Shown here piece by piece: positions 3,232 to 12,440 of a stretch of DNA of 53,576 nucleotides. Origin of the DNA: a virus; IMG/VR virus record IMGVR_UViG_3300027580_000001; one strand, 5' to 3'. A program made the translations under genes and the position numbers. Within the stretch, counting starts at the first letter, position 1. Each line of letters begins with the position of its first letter. The notes under the pieces were generated by a model. The model saw only the letters and a program-made list of their open reading frames with translations. It was not told where the DNA came from and made no database searches.

Positions 3232-3693
3232 ATGAGCGACGTAAACTACGAAGCTGTCGACATCCCCGACGACAAGCCGCCGTCCGAATACCACTGGACG
3301 GAGCGGCGGGCGGAGATCCTACAGCTCATCGAGAAGGCCGGCCACCCGGACTCAATCAGTCCGACTCGTTTAGCCGACCGCTACGGCGTCTCGAAGAGCC
3401 AGATCTCCCAAGACAAATCTCGTCTCCAGGAGTTCATCGTCGAGCAGATCGACGAGCCGGCCGTCGACGCGATCACCTCGACAGTCTTCCAGACGGCGGT
3501 CCAGGAACTGATGGATAACGACGAGTACCGGAAGGCGGCGAAGACCGTCGCCGACTGGAACGACTGGCTGGCCGACCGCGGCCACGTCGAGCGCGAGCCC
3601 GATCGCCTCGAGGCGAACGTCAGCCTCGAGGACCAGTTCATGTCGAACCTGAAGGACTACCACGGAGGTGACGACGACGATGTCGAGGAGTAA
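3232..3693 (+). CDS. HTH protein, putative terminase small subunit 2
   Basis: HTH SPTRLADRYGVSKSQISQDKSRL; overlaps the TerL start; shares its C-terminal motif with 1422..1946. Confidence 0.6.
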   Translation: MSDVNYEAVDIPDDKPPSEYHWTERRAEILQLIEKAGHPDSISPTRLADRYGVSKSQISQDKSRLQEFIVEQIDEPAVDAITSTVFQTAVQELMDNDEYRKAAKTVADWNDWLADRGHVEREPDRLEANVSLEDQFMSNLKDYHGGDDDDVEE

Positions 3694-5341
3694 CTCCGCC
3701 CCCGGCGTTCGCGGCGCCGGCGGGCCCGACGACGTCGACGCGCCGAAGCCCCCCGCGCACTACGCGCAGCGGGCCGACGCCGGCGACGAGACCTGGATCG
3801 AGGACGCCATCGAGGACTACCTCGGCATCCGCGTCGGTGAGACCCAGCGCCGGATCTGCCGCGCCGTCGCGACGAACAAGCAGCTGCTCGTCGTCTCCGC
3901 GAACTCGCTCGGGAAGTCGTACATCCTGGCGGCGATCACCATCGTCTGGCTGTTCTGCCGGTACCCCGCCGCGGCGTTCGCGACGTCGGGGACCGAGCGG
4001 AAGATGAAGCGGACGTACTGCAAGCCCGTCGAGAGCCTCCACGGCGACGCCCGGATCCCGCTCCCCGGCGAGTACAAGAGCCGGCCCGAGCGCATCGAGA
4101 TCGACGGCGAGCCCGAGCACTTCTTCGAGGCCAGCTCCCCCAGGGACGCCGGCGAGCTCGAGGGCGTCCACAACGCCTTCACGCTCTCGATGATCGAGGA
4201 GGCTGACAAGCCCGCCGTCGACGAGGACGTCATCGAGGCGATGCGGTCACTCGCGACCGACGACCGCGACCGCCTCATCCTCATCGCGAACCCGCCCGAG
4301 GACGAGACGAACTCGATCTACCCGCTGATGGACGACCACCCGAACTGGGAGGTCGTCCGCTTCTCGACGTTCGACGCGCACAACGTCCAGGTCGAGCGCG
4401 GGAACATCGACGAGCCGAAGATCGACGGCATCGCGGGCATCAGCAAGCTCGAGGACGACTGGGTCGAGCACAACAACACGCCCTGGCCCGGCATCGAGAC
4501 CGCGCTGCGCGTCTCGGCGCCGAAGCTCTCGCCCGACGGCGAGCTCGTGTTCGAGCGCGACGACGACCTCGAGGACAACCCCGACTTCCGGGCGGACCTC
4601 TCGAAGCGATGGTACCGGCGCCGCGCCGGCATCATGCCGCCCGAGGGCGCGTCCGTCCACCGGCCGTACGGCGCCGGCGTCGCGAAGGACGCCTACACCG
4701 ACCGGCTCACCGTCGAGCCCCGGCGCCCACTCGGCACCGGGATCGACGTCGCCGGCCCGGGCTCGGACGAGACCGTGCTGATCACGTACTGGTCGCCCGG
4801 GCTGTTCACGGTCCGGTACACGGCCCAGAACACGGACTACCCCGAGCAGGAGCAGGAGATCATGGCCGACTCCCGGCTCGGTGGCGATCGCCGCCACCCG
4901 GTCGCCGTCGACGCCGCCGGCGAGGGGTCCGGCCTGGCGGGCTACCTCGATGACCGCTGGCCCGACGTCTACCGGTTCGGCTCGGACAAGAAGCCGCTCA
5001 CCGAGGGCACCGCCGACGGCAACCCCTACGGGAAGATCAACTACGAGGACCAGCGGGCGGAGGCCCTCGCCGCCCTCGGCAACGTCCTCGAGGACGTCCA
5101 GTACTCGGACCGCGACCTTCGCGACCAGCTGGTCATCGGCGGTCGCACCATCGAGAACAGCACGAAGACGCTCGACAGCCGGGGCGAGCACGGCGCCGAG
5201 GTCGTCACCGTCAACTCGAAGGACGTCATCGAGGAGCGGCTCGGCCACTCGCCGGACTACCTGGACGCCGCCGCGCAGGCGGTCTGGGCCGCCGAGTGTA
5301 CCGAGCAGGACCTCAGCCCCGACGACGTCGTCGTACTCTAA
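3680..5341 (+). CDS. terL: Terminase large subunit
   Basis: Walker A-like ANSLGKS, Walker B SMIEEAD, RNase H-like nuclease GIDVAG / DAAGEGSG / SPDYLDA; GGAGGTG RBS at 3664-3670 supports the ATG at 3680. Confidence 0.9.
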   Translation: MSRSNSAPGVRGAGGPDDVDAPKPPAHYAQRADAGDETWIEDAIEDYLGIRVGETQRRICRAVATNKQLLVVSANSLGKSYILAAITIVWLFCRYPAAAFATSGTERKMKRTYCKPVESLHGDARIPLPGEYKSRPERIEIDGEPEHFFEASSPRDAGELEGVHNAFTLSMIEEADKPAVDEDVIEAMRSLATDDRDRLILIANPPEDETNSIYPLMDDHPNWEVVRFSTFDAHNVQVERGNIDEPKIDGIAGISKLEDDWVEHNNTPWPGIETALRVSAPKLSPDGELVFERDDDLEDNPDFRADLSKRWYRRRAGIMPPEGASVHRPYGAGVAKDAYTDRLTVEPRRPLGTGIDVAGPGSDETVLITYWSPGLFTVRYTAQNTDYPEQEQEIMADSRLGGDRRHPVAVDAAGEGSGLAGYLDDRWPDVYRFGSDKKPLTEGTADGNPYGKINYEDQRAEALAALGNVLEDVQYSDRDLRDQLVIGGRTIENSTKTLDSRGEHGAEVVTVNSKDVIEERLGHSPDYLDAAAQAVWAAECTEQDLSPDDVVVL

Positions 5342-5529: not shown

Positions 5530-8085
5530 ATGCGTGATGCCGCGTCTGGACGAGAGGTCCCAGAAGAGGCCTCGCTCGCGCCATCGCAGGATGGCGAGGC
5601 GTCACCGCAGGCCCGCGACGAACGGGCGACGGTCGTCGGTCGCGAGGAGCACACCGAGGAGCCGTCGTACGACGACGTCACCGACTGGGTCGAGTGCTAC
5701 GAGTCGAACCCCCTGGTCCGCGTTCCGGTCCAAAACTTCGCCTCCGACGTCACCGAGCCCGGCGTCGCCGTCGCCGTCGACACCGGCGATGGCTCGATGC
5801 CGACGGTCCCGAACGACTACCGGGACAACACGTACGCCGGGATGGACCTCGACGACGCGCTCGAGGCCTGGCTGTCGGACTGCTACATCGACGGCTGGGA
5901 CTTCGACGCCGACATCGTCGACCTCCTCGACGCCGTCGTGAAGGACCGCCGCGGCCGGCGCGGCACCGCCATCGTCGAGCACGCCTACGACGACCCGGAG
6001 AAGCGCGAGCGCGTCCTCGGGCTCCGCCCCATCAAGGTGGAGACGGTCACCGCCTACACGCGCTCCGGGAAGGGCATCGTACTCCGGCCTGACGACGACG
6101 TCGGCGAGTTCGAGAGCGTCGCCGTCCAGGACCTCAGCGACTCTCGCGACGAGGCGCCGAAGACACCGGCCGGAAAGACCGCGGCGATCGCCCAGTACGA
6201 CGACATCTTCGGCACGAGCGAGCGCGACGAGATCCCGTTCGCGCTCGACGACATCACGGTCAGCGCCTACGACCCCGACACGGGCAGCCTGTTCGGCCAG
6301 CCCGACACGGCGACGGTCGTCGACCGCGCCGAGGCCGTGCGCAAGAAGCTCGAGCGCGTCGACCAGGCCGTCCTGAACGCCGCCTTCTCGAACATCATCG
6401 CCCAGGTCGACTCCGACGAGGAGAAGATCGTCAAGAAGGTCCGCGACAACCTGGACCCGAACGACCCCGAGATCGTCTCCGCAACGAACGCGCCGGTCAA
6501 CCTGACCGAAGTCAACGGCCAGGTGCCCGACGCCGTCGACACGATTCAGCAGGAGATCGAGTTCGTCCTGGCCGCGATGCCGACGCCGCTGTACCGCGTC
6601 GGGTTCGCCGGCGACATCAACCGCGACATCACGACCGAGCAGCAGGAGGACTACACCGACGCACTCCGCCGCGAGCGCCGCCGCCTCGAGGCCGACTTCA
6701 AGAAGGTCCTCCGGCTGAAGGCGACGGAGTTCCTCGAGGGCGACGCCCACGCCGACACCTCGATCGACGTCGACGTCGGGCTGGAGATCCGGACGGACGA
6801 CGCGACCAGCCCGCTCCAGGACGATGAGTTCGACGCCGGCGAGTTCAGCACGCTGATGGACGGCCTCGCGACGGCCGCGGGCCCGAAGGGCGGCGCCGAC
6901 ACGATCGTCCCAAAGCGGGTGATCCTCGAGACGTTCCTCGACATGGATCCGGACGAGATCCTCGAGGAGGAGGGTAACGCCGACCTGGCCGCGCTCGACG
7001 AGTCCGACCCTCGCGTTCGCGATGCCTTCGAGCGCGCGATGGGCGCCGGCGGGATGCCCGCCGAGCTCGCCGAGGGCGAGGAGAACCACGTCTTCGGCCC
7101 GGCGATGAACACCGAGGACGGCTTCTACCGCCTCGACCCCGAGGAGGCGTACTGCGAGCATGAGGGTGAGGTGTTCGAGCAGTTCGACGAGGCCGACACC
7201 GACGACGTCGGCCGCCGCCTCTGCCCGTACTGCGGCGAGCAGCTCCAGAACTACGACAAGGCCTACCACGCTGCGCTCGCCGGCGGCGGCGTCCGGTTCA
7301 CGAACGTCGGGGGTGACCCGTTCGGCGACGAGGACGTCCTCACCTCGTTCCTGGACGACGTCGACGAGGCTGCCGACGGTCCGGTGACGCTCGGCGACAC
7401 CGAGTGGCCGGCCGACGACTACAGCATCCACGACCGGCCGGTGACGGCGGTCGGCCTCGGCGAGGAGGACGCTGTGGCCATCTGGAGCGAGTACGCTGAC
7501 GACGCCGTCGGCCTGATGGGGCCGAAGGAGGCCGCCGAACTCGCGACCCAGTACGTGGCCGGCGAGTCCATCGTCGACACGCCCGAGGGGAAGGGCCTGG
7601 TCGTCGAGGTCCTCACGGAGGCCAAGTCCATCGACGAGGAGGCCGAGGGGGTCCCCGACGAGATCGAGGCGAGCGACGAGTCGCCGACGTACGTGGTCAC
7701 GCTCGCGGAGACGTCGGGCCCGCCCATCGGGTTCTTCAAGGCGAGCGACCTCGAGGCCACGGAAGTCAACGCCGACGTCGACCCGACGGAGTCTCTCGAC
7801 GAGGAGGAGGCGGCCGCCATCGCGAACGGCGAGTGCCCGACCGGCGAAGACGCCGAGCTCGCAGGCGGGAGCTGGTCGCCGCCCGAGTCCTGGCGGGAGG
7901 CCGACGTCCCGGCGCGCCTCATCGCTCTCGACGCCTTCCAGTCGATGGGCGGCGACTTCGACGGCTGCGAGCGCGAGATGCGCGGCTCGGTCCGGAGGCC
8001 CCAGCAGTTCTGCGGGGCGTTCATGGACTACGTGTTCGGCGGCTACGACTACTGGCGGGGCGACTCGTTCCTCCCGGGTGACTGA
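5530..8085 (+). CDS. Portal protein with a ~360-aa multi-domain C-terminal extension
   Basis: Position between TerL and MuF; N-terminal ~480 aa has portal-like features (FGQPD, helical clip/wing region); the tail holds Zn, Tudor/SH3-like and Cys/aromatic modules. Confidence 0.75.
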   Translation: MRDAASGREVPEEASLAPSQDGEASPQARDERATVVGREEHTEEPSYDDVTDWVECYESNPLVRVPVQNFASDVTEPGVAVAVDTGDGSMPTVPNDYRDNTYAGMDLDDALEAWLSDCYIDGWDFDADIVDLLDAVVKDRRGRRGTAIVEHAYDDPEKRERVLGLRPIKVETVTAYTRSGKGIVLRPDDDVGEFESVAVQDLSDSRDEAPKTPAGKTAAIAQYDDIFGTSERDEIPFALDDITVSAYDPDTGSLFGQPDTATVVDRAEAVRKKLERVDQAVLNAAFSNIIAQVDSDEEKIVKKVRDNLDPNDPEIVSATNAPVNLTEVNGQVPDAVDTIQQEIEFVLAAMPTPLYRVGFAGDINRDITTEQQEDYTDALRRERRRLEADFKKVLRLKATEFLEGDAHADTSIDVDVGLEIRTDDATSPLQDDEFDAGEFSTLMDGLATAAGPKGGADTIVPKRVILETFLDMDPDEILEEEGNADLAALDESDPRVRDAFERAMGAGGMPAELAEGEENHVFGPAMNTEDGFYRLDPEEAYCEHEGEVFEQFDEADTDDVGRRLCPYCGEQLQNYDKAYHAALAGGGVRFTNVGGDPFGDEDVLTSFLDDVDEAADGPVTLGDTEWPADDYSIHDRPVTAVGLGEEDAVAIWSEYADDAVGLMGPKEAAELATQYVAGESIVDTPEGKGLVVEVLTEAKSIDEEAEGVPDEIEASDESPTYVVTLAETSGPPIGFFKASDLEATEVNADVDPTESLDEEEAAAIANGECPTGEDAELAGGSWSPPESWREADVPARLIALDAFQSMGGDFDGCEREMRGSVRRPQQFCGAFMDYVFGGYDYWRGDSFLPGD

Positions 8086-8087
8086 CT

Positions 8088-8996
8088 ATGACGGACCCAG
8101 CTGACGACCTCCGCGACGAGTTCGTTCGCGACATCCGGCGCCGGTTCAAGCGGATCCGCGGCGAGATCCGGCGCTGGGCTGGCTACGAGTACGACCTCTT
8201 CGGGCTCACCGATGATGGCCCTCGGCTGCCGGAGGATCTGCCCGACGACGCGCCCGATGTCTACCGGTTCACGACGGACCGGCGGAAGACGTCGGCGTTC
8301 CTCGACTGGCTGCGCCGGAGGCTCGACGACGAGCTGCTTGAGCCGCTGCGGTCCCGCCAGGTCGAGAACGGCGAGCACTGGACGGCCGAGTACATCCGCG
8401 CCGCCTACGACCGGGCCTGGCGCGACGCTCGCAGCCGGCTCCGGACGCAGGGCGTGAGCGTGGGGTCGCTCCCGGGCGACGAGGACACCGAGCTGATCGA
8501 CGCGCTGTTCGACATGCCGGCGCCGCGGGAGGGCCTCCGGACGCTGTTCACGCGGACCTACCGGAACCTCCAGGACATCGGTGCCGACACCGCCGAGCCG
8601 GTCCGGGAGACGCTGCTGACCGGGTTCGAGGATGGCTGGAACCCACGGAAGATGGCCTCGGAGCTCACGAAGGAGGTCCGCACCATCCAGCACACGCAGG
8701 CCGAGGTCCTGGCGCGGACGGAGACGATGAACGCCTACACCGAGGCCACCCTCGACCGCTACGAGCGCGGGGGCGTCGACACCGTCGCCCACGGCGAGTG
8801 GTCGACGGCTCTCGACACACGGGTCTGCCCGATCTGCAAGCAGCTCGACGGTCGGGAGATCCCGATCGGGGAGATGCGGACCGGGACGTTCGTCTTCGAG
8901 CCCGGGCCGGACGAGCCCGACCACCTGGCGGGAGAGTACCCGCTGCGCCCGCCAGCCCACCCACAGGGGCGCTGTACGGTGCTCCCGGTGCTGTAA
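8088..8996 (+). CDS. Head morphogenesis protein (SPP1 gp7 / MuF family)
   Basis: AEVLARTETMNAY...W.TALDTRVCPIC..LDG...PPAHPQGRC is the MuF signature. Confidence 0.9.
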   Translation: MTDPADDLRDEFVRDIRRRFKRIRGEIRRWAGYEYDLFGLTDDGPRLPEDLPDDAPDVYRFTTDRRKTSAFLDWLRRRLDDELLEPLRSRQVENGEHWTAEYIRAAYDRAWRDARSRLRTQGVSVGSLPGDEDTELIDALFDMPAPREGLRTLFTRTYRNLQDIGADTAEPVRETLLTGFEDGWNPRKMASELTKEVRTIQHTQAEVLARTETMNAYTEATLDRYERGGVDTVAHGEWSTALDTRVCPICKQLDGREIPIGEMRTGTFVFEPGPDEPDHLAGEYPLRPPAHPQGRCTVLPVL

Positions 8997-9017
8997 GGGA
9001 CTCCTGACTTCAGAACC

Positions 9018-11171
9018 ATGTCCACGGAAACCCACTCCACGTTCACGAGTCGTATCGCCGGCCTCGCCGAGACGGACGACGATGACACCCACGTCATCAA
9101 CGGCATCGCCGTCGGCGCCGGAGACCTCACGCACGGCCTGTCCCGGAAGTCGAAGCTCTGGCAGGCCGACGAGCTCCGCGCCGCAGCGTCGACGCTCGAG
9201 GGCGCCGAGATCAAAGCCCTCCACTCCGACGCCGTCGTCGGCGAGGTCACGAAAGCCGCCTTCGAGCCCGGGGTCGGCGTCCTGTACGAGGCCGAACTCG
9301 AGGACGAGAAGCTGGCCACCGGCATCGCGAACGGCCGGCTGACGGTCAGCATCGAGGCGACGCACTTCGACGGCGGCACCGTCCAGACCGAGCAGGGCGA
9401 AGCGATGGCCGCGACGAACATCACGTTCGACGGCCTCGCCATCGTCCAGAAGGGCGCGGCGCCGTCGGCGACCGCCGAACCCGGCCAGGCGGCCGCGCTC
9501 GCCGTGATGCCCGACGAGGTCCACGCGGCCCTCGCCGACGAGGACGCTGACCTGGAGTCGGCCGCGGCGGCCGACGTCGACGACCTCTCGAACGGCACGA
9601 TCGTCGCCTGGCAGACCGGCAACGGGACGCTGGCGTACGGCCGGGTGCTCGCGGTGATCCGCGGCGACCAGGAGCTGGGCCCCGAGCACGACGACGAGAT
9701 CTCCGTCACCGCCCCCGCGGCGGTCATCCGCGTCTACCGGCCCACCCAGGGCGGCGAGTGGACGGAGACGGACGTCGTGAAGGCGCGCAAGCCCGGGTCG
9801 CTGCGGGCGCTGTCGAACTTCCCGGCGGCGCCGCAGCTCGAGGCGGCGGCCGCAGCGGACTGCCGCGAGCACCTCACGGACGCGCCGACCGAGTGCCGCG
9901 AGTGCGGCGAACGGGAGCGGACGTTCAACACGATGCGGTGTCCCGAGTGCCATCCCGAGATGACGCCCGAGGACCACCCGCCGCTCGCGACCGCCGACGA
10001 GGCGACGATCGAGGACTGGCAGGAGGCCCAGGCGGCCGCCCTCGCCGACGTCCCCTACGAGGTGACGAACGTCGCCCCGGAGGACGTCGACGAGTGGACC
10101 GATGACGAGTGGGACGGCGACGCCGTCGAGGCGGAGCTTCCGAGCCCCTCCGAGGTCGACGACGCCCCGGACGTCCTGGACCAGACGATGGCGCTCGTGC
10201 CTGGCGATGAGGAGGCGCGAGACTCGAAGTCCAGCTGGAAGGCGCCGTTCCGCGCCGGCGTCGACGCGCCGGTGAACACGCGCGCCCTCGTCGCGATCGA
10301 CGGCGCGCTCTCGGGCGCCCGCGGTGGCTTCGACGACGTCTCCGAGGAGACCGCCGACAGTCTCAGCGACTGGACGGAGTCGATGCTGGCCGCGGCGCCG
10401 GACGACCTCTACGGCGTCGAGGAGGCGGAGGCTGCGGCCTCCGAATCCGAGGTGCCTGGCGCTGGCGACGCCGGGAGCGATGACCCCGCTGGAGCGAGCT
10501 CTTCCAGTCGCGACGCCGACACCGACGCCGCCGTCGACGAGGCCGCGGACCAGGATCCGGAGTCCGGCGCTGGCCGCGATGACCCCGCTGGAGCGAGCTC
10601 TTCCAGCCGTGACAACGACCCTGCCAGCGATGACCCGGAGACCGCGGCCGCTGCGGAATCGAACCAGACGACCGACACTACTACAACGACATCCATGAGC
10701 GATGACGACGACCCCGAGGACGTCCAGGAGCTGAAGGCACGTCTCTCGGACAAGACCGAACGGATCGACACCCTCGAGGAGCAGGTTGACGACCTCGAGG
10801 AGGAGAACGAACGACTGAGCGAGCGGGCGGAGGCCGTCGACGAGGCCGAGGAGGCCTACGCCGAGGCCCTCGCCCAGCACGTCCCCCGCGACGCGGAGGA
10901 CCTCCAGGAGGACCTCTCGCTGAACCAGCTGCGGGAGTGGCTCGCGAACATCGACGAGGCCGACCTGGCCGAGGACGTCGAGCCCTCCGTCCGCTCGGGG
11001 AACGACCCCAGCGGCACCGAGACGGCGAACCTCTCGGAGGCCGAGCGCGAGCGGAAGTCCGAGCTCGAGGCGAAGCTCTCGGAGCTCGAGGAGAAGGAGG
11101 GCCCGCTGGCCGAGAAGGAGCAGGAACGGCTCGAAGCTGAACTGGCGGAGATCACCGGAGGTGACGCCTGA
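9018..11171 (+). CDS. Prohead protease/scaffold polyprotein with accessory domains
   Basis: Between MuF and the capsid genes; N-terminal protease-like domain (ALHSDAVVGEV, VSIE, FDGLAIVQKGAAPSA), then Tudor-like, CxxC and GARGG domains, and a coiled-coil scaffold C-terminus. Confidence 0.7.
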   Translation: MSTETHSTFTSRIAGLAETDDDDTHVINGIAVGAGDLTHGLSRKSKLWQADELRAAASTLEGAEIKALHSDAVVGEVTKAAFEPGVGVLYEAELEDEKLATGIANGRLTVSIEATHFDGGTVQTEQGEAMAATNITFDGLAIVQKGAAPSATAEPGQAAALAVMPDEVHAALADEDADLESAAAADVDDLSNGTIVAWQTGNGTLAYGRVLAVIRGDQELGPEHDDEISVTAPAAVIRVYRPTQGGEWTETDVVKARKPGSLRALSNFPAAPQLEAAAAADCREHLTDAPTECRECGERERTFNTMRCPECHPEMTPEDHPPLATADEATIEDWQEAQAAALADVPYEVTNVAPEDVDEWTDDEWDGDAVEAELPSPSEVDDAPDVLDQTMALVPGDEEARDSKSSWKAPFRAGVDAPVNTRALVAIDGALSGARGGFDDVSEETADSLSDWTESMLAAAPDDLYGVEEAEAAASESEVPGAGDAGSDDPAGASSSSRDADTDAAVDEAADQDPESGAGRDDPAGASSSSRDNDPASDDPETAAAAESNQTTDTTTTTSMSDDDDPEDVQELKARLSDKTERIDTLEEQVDDLEEENERLSERAEAVDEAEEAYAEALAQHVPRDAEDLQEDLSLNQLREWLANIDEADLAEDVEPSVRSGNDPSGTETANLSEAERERKSELEAKLSELEEKEGPLAEKEQERLEAELAEITGGDA
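10478..10606 (+). repeat. 30-bp exact direct repeat (10478-10507 and 10577-10606) in the scaffold linker
   Basis: cgatgaccccgctggagcgagctcttccag occurs twice and encodes DDPAGASSSS. Confidence 0.9.
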
Positions 11172-11173
11172 CG

Positions 11174-11575
11174 ATGAGTCTCGAACCCGGTCAGTCCCAC
11201 AAGAGCGACGCAACGCACACTGAGACCCGGACTGCCGCCGAGGCGCTCTCCGGCGGCGACGCCGTCGCGCTCGACGCGAACGGCGAGCTCGTCACCGCTG
11301 ACGACACCAACGACACGGTCGTCTACGGTGTCGCTGGCTACAACGGCGGCGATGGCTACGAGGCGGGGGACAACGTCCTCGTCACCTACAGCGGGCCCGT
11401 CGTCGCGAACGTCGCGGCCGGCGTCGCGCCGGGCGTCGAGCTCGGCGTCTCGGCGACCGAGGGCGAGCTCGCCGCGGGCACCAGCGCGAAGGGCATCATG
11501 ACGATGTACGCCGAGGGTGCCGCACCGGGCGGTATCCCCGACGTCCCGGACGGCTACGCCCACGTCGACGTGTAA
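11174..11575 (+). CDS. Head decoration/cement protein (DUF2190-like)
   Basis: Small Gly/Ala/Val-rich beta protein directly upstream of the major capsid gene; GDAVALDANGELV and VLVTYSGPVVANV patterns. Confidence 0.7.
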   Translation: MSLEPGQSHKSDATHTETRTAAEALSGGDAVALDANGELVTADDTNDTVVYGVAGYNGGDGYEAGDNVLVTYSGPVVANVAAGVAPGVELGVSATEGELAAGTSAKGIMTMYAEGAAPGGIPDVPDGYAHVDV

Positions 11576-11612: not shown

Positions 11613-12440
11613 ATGCCGCTTCCCGACATCACTCAGATCGTCGACCCCACGACCGTTCGTGAGGTCGCAGCCGAACGAGTCGAAGCACAGACCGTCGTCC
11701 GCGAGTTCTTCCAGGATCCGCCTGGAGGCATCCCGGAGGGCGCTGGCGAAACCTACCAGATCCCGGTGCCCGCCGAGGAGCTCGGCGAACCCGAAGAGGT
11801 CGAGCCCGGCGCGGACACGACCTACGACCGCGAAGAGTACGGTCGCCCGGAGATCGCCCGCCAGATCTTCAAGAAGGGCTCGAAGATCCCGGAGGAGGAC
11901 ATCAACGACAACATCTTCGACCTGGTCCAGGACCACCTCGACGGCCACGCGAAGAACATGGCCAAGAAGCTGGACCGGGCCGCGTTCGCTGTCCTCGACG
12001 CGGCCGCCCCTGCTGGCAGCGCCGTCGGCGACGACGACGGCACTCTCAGCTTCACCGACATCAACTCCGGCGTGACCGAGCTCGCCCAGCGCGGCGAGGA
12101 CGGCTTCACCGCCGACATGGCCCTCGTCGGCCCGTCCGGCAAGGAGTCCCTCATCAACTACCTCGCCGAACGCGGCACCGACCTCGGGGACGAGGCGGTC
12201 CAGAACGGCGAGCTCGGCGAGTTCGCCGGCATCCGCTTCATGTTCTCGAACAACGTCACCGTCGGCGCCAACGAGGCGATCGTCGTCGACACCGACGAGT
12301 TCGGGTACGAAGGCGAGTGGCAGCCGGTCGACACCGACCAGGACACGGACTTCGACGCCGACGCGATCAAGATGAAGATCAAGGCGGCGTACGGCTGGAC
12401 CGACAAGCACTCCGAGGCCGCCGTCCGGGTCCAGGGCTGA
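11613..12440 (+). CDS. Major capsid protein (HK97 fold)
   Basis: Position and size (275 aa); HK97-like EPGADT...KKGSKIPEE...LAKKLDRAAF and GELGEFAGIRFMFSNNV segments. Confidence 0.85.
   Translation: MPLPDITQIVDPTTVREVAAERVEAQTVVREFFQDPPGGIPEGAGETYQIPVPAEELGEPEEVEPGADTTYDREEYGRPEIARQIFKKGSKIPEEDINDNIFDLVQDHLDGHAKNMAKKLDRAAFAVLDAAAPAGSAVGDDDGTLSFTDINSGVTELAQRGEDGFTADMALVGPSGKESLINYLAERGTDLGDEAVQNGELGEFAGIRFMFSNNVTVGANEAIVVDTDEFGYEGEWQPVDTDQDTDFDADAIKMKIKAAYGWTDKHSEAAVRVQG

Follow-up and report, generated by a model that had tools for sequence, protein, structure and literature searches.

An Ala-x-Leu motif at module borders of the portal and protease-scaffold proteins of a haloarchaeal tailed virus: a candidate prohead-protease code

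Introduction

Does a tetrapeptide that recurs in two head proteins of an archaeal tailed virus mark the sites at which the virus's own maturation protease cuts them? The question is raised by IMG/VR virus record IMGVR_UViG_3300027580_000001, whose 53,576 nucleotides, the whole stretch of DNA that was analyzed, are called the window here. Its portal protein (851 amino acids, aa) and a 717-aa protein in which a protease appears to be fused to a scaffold together contain 12 copies of the sequence A-x-L-A, compared with ~2 expected. The original prediction read these copies as a maturation cleavage code that releases small effector domains from two polyproteins. The data presented below indicate that the motif is a conserved signal rather than composition noise, and we interpret the A-x-L-A sites, with moderate confidence, as prohead-protease sites that are probably cut A-x-L↓A/S. 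We know of no archaeal tailed virus for which the specificity of the head protease has been defined.

Results

A-x-L-A Is Enriched in the Portal Tail and Recurs in the 717-aa Protein

All 12 sites lie exactly at the coordinates given in the original prediction. In the portal tail (371 aa) A.LA occurs five times compared with 0.32 expected by shuffling, which bears out the earlier estimate of fewer than one chance occurrence, and none of 20,000 residue shuffles reached five. The 717-aa protein contains six copies compared with 1.39 expected by residue shuffles (P=0.002). The motif was picked post hoc from the sequence, and the P values that matter are therefore the family-wise ones, computed over all motifs of the form a.bc. 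By this measure A.LA is the top motif of the whole portal, with a family-wise P of ~0.056. Enrichment over shuffled proteins, a check proposed together with the prediction, thus holds for the portal tail and, for the 717-aa protein, holds nominally but not family-wise. Permuted motifs of equal composition (AL.A, A.AL, LA.A, L.AA, and AA.L) number 0-3 per protein in the portal and the 717-aa protein, and the remaining 64 open reading frames (ORFs) of the window (14,044 aa, likewise acidic and Ala-rich) contain 9 A.LA copies compared with 11.4 expected. The scaffold part of the 717-aa protein also harbors three A-x-L-S sites that the prediction had not listed (ARLS 574, ANLS 670, and AKLS 685). 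Comparison with relatives gives a wider consensus, A-x-L-[A/S/G], and what had been described as an A-x-L-A code stands as a conserved motif with a less restricted fourth residue.

The Motif Precedes Each Portal Tail Module at a Near-Fixed Offset

The portal gene and its features are listed below by window position and strand; pLDDT is the predicted local distance difference test score of the structural models.

5530-8085 (+): portal gene, 851 aa, a core plus a four-module C-terminal tail; phrog_9232 portal match over residues 19-447 (E 5e-39)
5569-5580 (+): ASLA 14-17, the N-terminal portal site, in the context A-x-L-A-P-S/T-Q-D; kept in ~50/57 homologues; x varies (S, A, L, Q, K, E, R, W), and position four is A, G, or S
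6979-6990 (+): ADLA 484-487, where the portal core ends; pLDDT<50 in the tail model; ADLA, ADLS, ADLG, ADLE, or AAMA in homologues
7060-7071 (+): AELA 511-514, from the core linker to the first tail module; pLDDT<50; junction kept whether Zn, B, C, or a large HExxH tail comes next
7072-7269 (+): module Zn, aa 515-580, a CxH...CPxC ribbon; present in 10/57 homologues
7270-7281 (+): AALA 581-584, junction Zn/B; adjoins low-pLDDT segment 105-110 of the tail model
7282-7533 (+): module B, aa 585-668, alpha/beta; 49% identity with the very C terminus of HCTV-1 gp109
7534-7545 (+): AELA 669-672, junction B/C; coincides with pLDDT<50 segment 200-203 of the tail model, between two folded domains
7546-7851 (+): module C, aa 673-774, a Tudor/SH3-like barrel; Foldseek gives a weak match, the PcrA/UvrD Tudor domain (probability 0.95, template-modeling score 0.72 on the target); also found in stand-alone proteins
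7852-7863 (+): AELA 775-778, junction C/D; pLDDT<50
7864-8082 (+): module D, aa 779-851, helical and Cys-containing, ending YWRGDSFLPGD; common to the HATV-3 portal C terminus and HHTV-1 gp12

The window portal was compared with 56 homologues of 482-1237 aa (57 portals in all), which have the core in common and differ in their tails. Across the set, Ala and Leu of the motif are held while x varies, down to 37% identity. When the four tail modules, which are unrelated to one another, are recognized in these homologues by simple sequence anchors, A-x-L-[AGSE] is found at a near-fixed offset before 9/10 Zn, 10/10 B, 32/38 C, and 33/36 D modules, compared with a background in 22-residue windows of the portal cores of 5.5% for this loose motif and 0.9% for the strict one. 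The earlier placement of the motif at module boundaries is therefore upheld by fixed offsets before all four modules. The motif precedes a module whatever lies upstream, be it the core linker, another module, or the leader of a stand-alone protein, and it also precedes whatever comes after the portal core. At the module C junction the information content is 3.6 bits for A, 1.9 for x, 4.3 for L, and 3.5 for A, compared with just 1.1-1.8 bits at the eight upstream positions; the rows were registered on Leu, so its invariance is partly by construction. In 41 aligned tails, the Leu of AELA 669-672 is one of just two invariant columns, and the first Ala is nearly invariant.

The structural models place these sites in linkers. 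Four of the five sites in the portal-tail model lie inside pLDDT<50 segments, which make up ~20% of the model, and the fifth borders one; the sole low-confidence stretch that separates modules B and C is AELA itself. For both proteins together, low-confidence linkers hold or adjoin 9/10 modeled sites. No Foldseek hit of the portal tail reached E<=0.001; module C had just weak Tudor-like matches, and B and D had none that could be used.

Portal Modules Are Gained and Lost at the Motif

Differences in domain content between homologues fall at the same positions. The portal of P0006, which is 94% identical to the window portal over their common parts, corresponds to the window portal minus residues 515-672, an AELA-to-AELA deletion, while P0012 lacks the Zn module alone and P0010 lacks B alone. 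The portal tail architectures comprise C-D (25 portals), Zn-B-C-D (7), Zn-B plus another module (2), Zn-C-D (1), B-C-D (1), and C or D alone (6), and 15 portals without any of the four anchors range from tail-less forms to tails with other modules. The stand-alone proteins P0239-P0241 (203-218 aa) consist of a variable leader of 30-45 residues followed by A-x-L-A, module C, A-x-L-G, and module D. The junction is kept across tails and stand-alone proteins, and the motif therefore accompanies the modules in every context. From these sequence comparisons it appears that module gain and loss occur exactly at the motif, and the check that had been suggested, on whether domain gain or loss in homologues coincides with it, was positive.

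In contig L010 (a Halorientalis persicus provirus contig, 6915-10612) the tail is split, with a portal carrying Zn-B plus another module and, two ORFs downstream of it, a separate 203-aa gene that reads leader-AQLA-C-AELG-D. A further module (I/V-D-L-T-P-P ... G-T-G-V-G ... Y-L-x-S-H ... W-T-D-G-C-G-P-V-Q) forms part of the portal tail of HATV-3 gp12 (L001) and sits inside the protease-scaffold protein in P0082, P0085, P0086, P0088, P0093, and HGTV-1 gp11 (L003). The two carriers therefore exchange modules.

Module B resembles the last ~80 residues of HCTV-1 gp109 (L007 2501-2728), a 1210-aa "zeta toxin domain protein" whose gene lies just upstream of the S78-like protease and capsid genes of HCTV-1. 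Module B may be a head-targeting or anchoring domain common to portal tails and large head-associated proteins; its occurrence at the end of a protein encoded beside protease and capsid genes would be as compatible with anchoring in the head as with an effector function.

In the long portals P0024, P0032, P0041, P0051, and P0033 (1090-1237 aa), an HExxH motif and a conserved N-P-x-L-H-P-R-x-P-x-T-G-Q-F-V-E sequence directly follow the first A-E-L-[A/S] junction. Pfam searches with nine long-tailed portal homologues returned just one DUF and gave no match for the HExxH-bearing tails.

The 717-aa Protein Begins with a Predicted Assemblin/gp21-Fold Protease Flanked by Motif Sites

The features of the 717-aa gene are as follows.

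9018-11171 (+): protease-Tudor-Zn-conserved domain-scaffold fusion gene, 717 aa
9057-9068 (+): AGLA 14-17, upstream flank of the protease domain; pLDDT<50; of 156 members, 114 keep A14 and 121 keep L16, while 78 have S and 39 have A at position 17
9069-9491 (+): capsid-maturation protease domain, aa 18-158, assemblin/gp21 fold by structure prediction
9492-9503 (+): AALA 159-162, site on the downstream side of the protease domain; of 156 wide-family members, 102 keep L, and 99 have S and 20 have A at position 162
9525-9536 (+): AALA 170-173, second post-protease linker site; L172 nearly invariant; in pLDDT<50 segment 164-182
9579-9818 (+): Tudor-like domain, aa 188-267; PHF1 Tudor Z 7.9, root-mean-square deviation (rmsd) 1.6 Å over 55 residues
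9858-9971 (+): Zn-ribbon region, ~aa 281-318; weak DUF7129 and DZR matches, CxxC...CxxC pattern
10035-10046 (+): AALA 340-343, before the conserved domain; kept in close homologues, degenerate (AA-AA) in others
10062-10415 (+): conserved domain, aa 349-466, W-K-x-P-F-R ... N-T-R-A-L-V-A-I-D; 52% identical to HATV-3 gp15, also in HGTV-1 gp11
10695-11168 (+): coiled-coil scaffold part, ~aa 560-717; weak coiled-coil-type Pfam/PDB matches only; directly upstream of the cement and capsid genes
10737-10748 (+): ARLS 574-577; A574 and L576 nearly invariant
10959-10970 (+): ADLA 648-651; partly conserved, ADLA or ANLA in close homologues and absent in others
11025-11036 (+): ANLS 670-673; A670 nearly invariant
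11070-11081 (+): AKLS 685-688
11136-11147 (+): AELA 707-710, seven residues from the C terminus; L709 and G714 nearly invariant

An AlphaFold2 model of residues 1-345 has pLDDT values of 95-98 for residues 21-155 and below 50 for residues 7-19 and 164-182, and the three sites around the protease domain therefore lie in flexible segments. The modeled domain superimposes on the protease of varicella-zoster virus with a Z score of 11.7 (rmsd 2.9 Å over 119 residues), on that of pseudorabies virus with Z 11.5, on those of human cytomegalovirus and herpes simplex virus (HSV) with Z ~9.6, and on T4 gp21 with Z 10.1 (rmsd 2.7 Å over 121 residues). The Foldseek match of the domain had E 1.5e-4 and probability 1.00. 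All 156 aligned members have H69, 152 have S111 and three have Thr instead, and 135 have H116. The order and spacing of H69 and S111 fit a catalytic His followed by Ser, an assignment made by conservation rather than by superposition on known residues. The Thr111 homologues are P0087, P0089, and P0090, one of which comes from a Halorientalis persicus provirus, and their N-terminal flank reads S-R-I-A-x-[L/C]-R-E, not A-x-L-A.

Pfam searches with the window protein and 20 family members gave no family match to the protease domain (Peptidase_S78, S80, S21, and similar) even at E<=1, a sequence-profile search of the PDB likewise gave none, and the sole PHROG match of the domain was PHROG 36109, annotated "unknown function." No curated sequence family matches, and the protease assignment therefore rests on the fold, the conserved His and Ser, and gene position. 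The models make it clear that the 717-aa protein starts with a predicted capsid-maturation protease of the assemblin/gp21 fold, in agreement with its earlier label as a protease/scaffold.

Across the 156 protease-domain proteins, Ala and Leu of the motif are held while x is free to vary. In close homologues the residues around the sites are also constrained. The N-terminal flank reads S-R-I-A-x-L-A at residues 11-17 and the downstream flank G-x-A-A-A-L-[A/S] at 156-162, with G156, A158, and L161 invariant. The C-terminal consensus is [LV]-E-A-E-L-A-[ED]-[IL]-T-G-G, and a scaffold site of the close family, [FY]-A-A-A-L-A-E, is degenerate in the window (Y-A-E-A-L-A). Between the protease and the scaffold, Hva1_TUDOR matches were obtained for 7/20 aligned family members (best E 8e-8). 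The conserved domain, which in full ends ...N-T-R-A-L-V-A-I-D-x-A-L-S-G-A-R-G-G, sits upstream of the scaffold coiled coil and is present behind either N-terminal start, an assemblin-like protease or a DUF2213-like domain (HATV-3 gp15, HGTV-1 gp11). A direct repeat, D-D-P-A-G-A-S-S-S-S-R-D, is present in two copies at window ~10470-10640 (P0002 residues ~487-540) in an acidic low-complexity spacer that separates the conserved domain from the scaffold, and indels of one repeat unit distinguish the 687-aa and 721-aa forms among close homologues.

The Motif Is a Property of the Protease Family

A library-wide search with the first 180 residues of the 717-aa protein retrieved 346 cluster representatives. 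Lengths among the matches listed (the best 150 of 346) run from 106 to 1560 aa, and the protease domain therefore heads very variable proteins. In 133 protease-family representatives clustered at 50% identity, the 64,936 residues downstream of the protease domain contain 120 copies of A.LS compared with 9-45 for its permutations, and 98 of A.LA compared with 41-51 for same-gap permutations and 41-62 when the gap is moved. These excesses make the code a property of the protease family. The fourth position prefers Ser in the wide protease family and Ala in the window's clade.

These counts bear on the possibility that the motif has no function and arose from composition (Ala/Leu-rich helices or acidic haloarchaeal proteins), common descent, and recombination at short DNA microhomologies encoding A-E-L-A. 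Deletions between GCC-GAR-CTC-GCS repeats alone would put junctions at the motif; many of the homologues counted are related, so that the counts overstate the number of independent events; and over whole proteins of the wide family permuted motifs are also common (AL.A 131, AA.L 133). However, the rest of the proteome, of equal composition, shows no enrichment, the permuted controls are low in both window proteins and downstream of the protease domain in the 133 representatives, x is free where A and L are held, and the sites lie in disordered linkers rather than helices. Two specific forms of this explanation were rejected: a DNA-level signal, the 12 motif copies sharing just the identity that codons impose while x varies, and a general haloarchaeal composition bias, on the basis of the rest-of-window counts and the permuted motifs. 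An absence of function is thus largely contradicted already, and we regard it as very unlikely.

The Motif in Relatives with and without the Protease

In five related contigs with the protease domain, portal and protease-scaffold protein both bear the motif; their capsid and cement proteins lack it, as do those of the window. In HATV-3 gp15 and contig L008 a DUF2213-like domain, instead of the protease, heads the gene in the scaffold position. Modules C and D are retained there, in the portal tail or as a stand-alone gene, without A-x-L-A, the junctions reading ...V-G-N-A-N-R-Y... and ...V-V-N-A-R-R-Y.... These DUF2213-type relatives without the motif amount to two independent negatives only, and eHP-16, which has the protease and yet an E-E-L-A junction, is an exception to the link between motif and protease.

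The same comparison helps to separate cutting from binding. The motif might be bound rather than cut, serving as a docking peptide for a common procapsid partner (scaffold, protease, or capsid inner surface) or as a hinge that the modules need. Conservation and linker position would then equal those of cleavage sites, the stand-alone C-D proteins carry the motif after their leader as they would a targeting tag, and the C-terminal ...AELAEITGG peptide is conserved as one unit, as a tail that binds the capsid would be. For specific binding, however, a signal of three Ala/Leu residues is very small, sites on both sides of the protease domain form the classic layout for self-release, and scaffold proteins with many sites suit degradation better. 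Moreover, the motif is absent where the DUF2213-like domain replaces the protease, although the scaffold-type C-terminal region remains. We consider docking possible but unlikely.

Cleavage by another protease, either of the host or the HExxH metallopeptidase-like domain of the relatives' long portal tails, was also considered. The five long portals described above contain such motifs, and Iyer et al. (2017) propose autoproteolysis by domains of this kind in phage polyvalent proteins (PMC5512222). But neither window protein has an HExxH domain, and yet the window has the densest motif set; in addition, the motif flanks the assemblin-fold protease in 156 proteins and is missing where that protease is missing. 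We regard cleavage by another protease as very unlikely as well.

Genome Region and Head-Gene Layout

The G+C content of the window is 68%, and Asp+Glu make up 18-30% of its proteins. Its closest matches among isolated viruses are haloarchaeal tailed viruses. Relatives occur in Halorubrum sp. E3, Halorubrum rutilum, and Halorientalis persicus. The cluster of the 717-aa protein occurs on contigs of up to ~55 kb, and the window is therefore a near-complete viral genome, derived from a metagenome. The head module runs in the order TerL, portal, MuF, 717-aa gene, cement, and capsid protein, an arrangement shared by contigs L004-L006, L009, and L010. The 717-aa gene, with its protease fused to a scaffold, sits between the portal/MuF genes and the capsid gene, a layout expected of capsid-maturation proteases. 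The other genes of the module are listed below.

3668-5341: TerL
8088-8996 (+): Mu F / SPP1 gp7-like head protein (PF04233, E 1e-14), without any [AST].L[AGS] site
11174-11575 (+): cement/decoration protein (PF22758, weak match), without the motif
11613-12440 (+): major capsid protein, 275 aa, HK97-fold (PF25209, E 9e-12), without delta domain and without A-x-L-A

Discussion

Proposed Processing of the Head Proteins

As in head proteins punctuated by prohead-protease sites, one motif recurs here in several head proteins at what sequence and models suggest are accessible module borders. A-x-L-[A/S/G] is probably the recognition site of the virus's own assemblin/gp21-fold serine protease (residues 18-158). 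That the sites are cut, by this enzyme and at the proposed bond, we infer; by analogy with enzymes of this fold that have a known specificity and read P3-x-P1, the cut is probably A-x-L↓(A/S/G). Inside the procapsid, the protease would free itself at the flanking sites 14-17 and 159-173 and cut the scaffold into short pieces at 574, 648, 670, 685, and 707. It would also trim ~15 residues off the portal N terminus and split the portal core (~residues 18-483/510) from the four small C-terminal modules. Retention of the released modules in the head and their entry into the host are speculative.

Several observations weigh against cleavage by the virus's own protease. In HGTV-1, the nearest isolated virus with the protease (domain 43% identical), there are just three A-x-L-S sites, the flanking AHLS and AELS plus one ARLS, and most module borders are unmarked; the code extends to HGTV-1 in part only, and from this sequence punctuation by the motif is not universal in the protease family. 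The motif also occurs in a few other genes of related contigs (Mu F in L010, TerL in L004), and deviating portal junctions read E-E-L-A, G-E-L-A, and A-E-L-V/L. Within the window alone, A.LA is not the top a.bc motif of the 717-aa protein (family-wise P 0.76), so that the counts there serve solely as a replication of the chosen motif (nominal P 0.003). AALA 340-343 lies in a predicted helix (pLDDT ~84) and is the least linker-like site, and the scaffold sites belong to a coiled coil, a structure in which Ala/Leu patterns are frequent; several of these sites are conserved columns. Some of the scaffold coiled-coil sites, the C-terminal ...AELAEITGG tail, and the helical AALA 340-343 may thus be kept for other, structural reasons. 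His69 and Ser111 are putative catalytic residues, and three homologues have Thr at position 111. The capsid protein has no site and hence provides no independent known maturation site against which the motif could be calibrated, and an incomplete search of the literature found neither virion proteomics nor a cleavage motif for these haloviruses.

The part of the original prediction that concerned small effector domains fared less well than the motif itself. Pfam and Foldseek found no enzyme, toxin, or defense-related domains in either window protein, contrary to the hallmark of polyvalent proteins, and large HExxH-containing tails are found in just some relatives. Of the four modules of the window, one is a Zn ribbon, one an alpha/beta domain, one a Tudor-like barrel, and one a helical domain with Cys residues, and the effector cargo reading is unsupported.

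Implications

Motif-reading prohead proteases, processed portals, and portal-effector fusions are already known (PMC10052503; PMC5512222). What appears to be new, as judged from sequences and models, is the archaeal setting, the A-x-L-[A/S/G] code, and a portal tail arranged like beads on a string whose modules are also present in the protease-scaffold protein and in leader-bearing stand-alone genes. No description of such an archaeal code or tail was found in the searchable literature, an incomplete search that is weak evidence of novelty. The prediction for this large, mostly uncultured clade of haloviruses and proviruses is that protein termini will be found at A-x-L / A-x-L-A. The findings also suggest a reading rule for halovirus head genes, in which inter-motif modules are the units of evolution and move among portal tail, protease-scaffold protein, and stand-alone genes.

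A broader proposal, which we regard as doubtful, is that an entire haloarchaeal tailed-virus clade uses an Ala-x-Leu cleavage code that turns two procapsid proteins, the portal (at its C terminus) and the protease-scaffold protein, into interchangeable carriers. Freely swappable modules, from 7-11 kDa Zn-ribbon/Tudor-like domains to large HExxH enzymes, would be loaded into the head on these carriers, freed by the assemblin-like protease, and delivered to the host with the DNA. If this were true, there would be 12 copies per virion on the portal C terminus and many more on the protease-scaffold protein, and neither a protease specificity nor a capsid-cargo system would have been described for an archaeal virus before. 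If the modules reach the host, they would represent a new class of archaeal virus early factors.

Comparison with Known Systems

Herpesvirus assemblins cut at the consensus (V/L/I)-x-A↓S, with an R site after the protease and an M site near the scaffold C terminus (HSV UL26/UL26.5). The window protein resembles this system in its protease fold, for which herpesvirus proteases are the best structural matches (Z 9-12), and in the fusion of the protease upstream of the scaffold. Its sites directly after the protease (AALA 159-162) and seven residues from the C terminus (AELA 707-710) are placed like the R and M sites. In contrast to the herpesvirus system, the motif is A-x-L-[A/S/G]; a Tudor domain, a Zn ribbon, and a conserved domain lie between protease and scaffold; there are many more sites; the motif extends to the portal; the host is archaeal; and sequence identity is 12-16%. 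The herpesvirus-like protease-site-scaffold-site layout would be an archaeal data point for a shared assembly logic of the Duplodnaviria.

The head protease removes a short N-terminal peptide from the portal in lambda (gpB to gpB*) and P2 (gpQ), and a C-terminal part in Mu (gpH). Unlike these portals, the window portal has up to six candidate sites in one protein, and four folded modules are predicted to be released from it.

The head protease of T4 cuts L/I-x-E. T4 gp21, phiKZ gp175, and SPN3US gp245 read L/I-x-E and A/S/G-x-E codes and cleave internal or ejection proteins. For SPN3US gp245, which cuts after A-x-E and favors Ser at P1', the substrates are the portal, the capsid protein, and ejection proteins (PMC10052503). 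The features predicted here are similar to those of such gp21-type and giant-phage proteases (PMC10052503), namely, a short P3-x-P1 code, self-cutting, portal and packaged proteins as substrates, and multiple sites per propeptide. The differences are that P1 would be Leu (or the next small residue) rather than Glu, that the genome is ~55 kb and not giant, that the capsid protein lacks a site, and that the putative cargo is on the portal C terminus and the protease-scaffold protein, not on separate propeptide-bearing proteins.

Finally, in polyvalent proteins and portal/MuF-effector fusions, portals with variable C-terminal domains are thought to be packaged and delivered (PMC5512222). The portals described here are similarly fused to variable C-terminal domains, and some relatives have large HExxH-containing tails (up to 1237 aa). 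For polyvalent proteins, however, release via embedded metallopeptidase domains has been proposed and no prohead-protease linker code described (PMC5512222), whereas the modules of the window are small and nonenzymatic, belong to a virus of haloarchaeal hosts, and would be released at A-x-L-[A/S/G] linkers by the protease of the virus itself.

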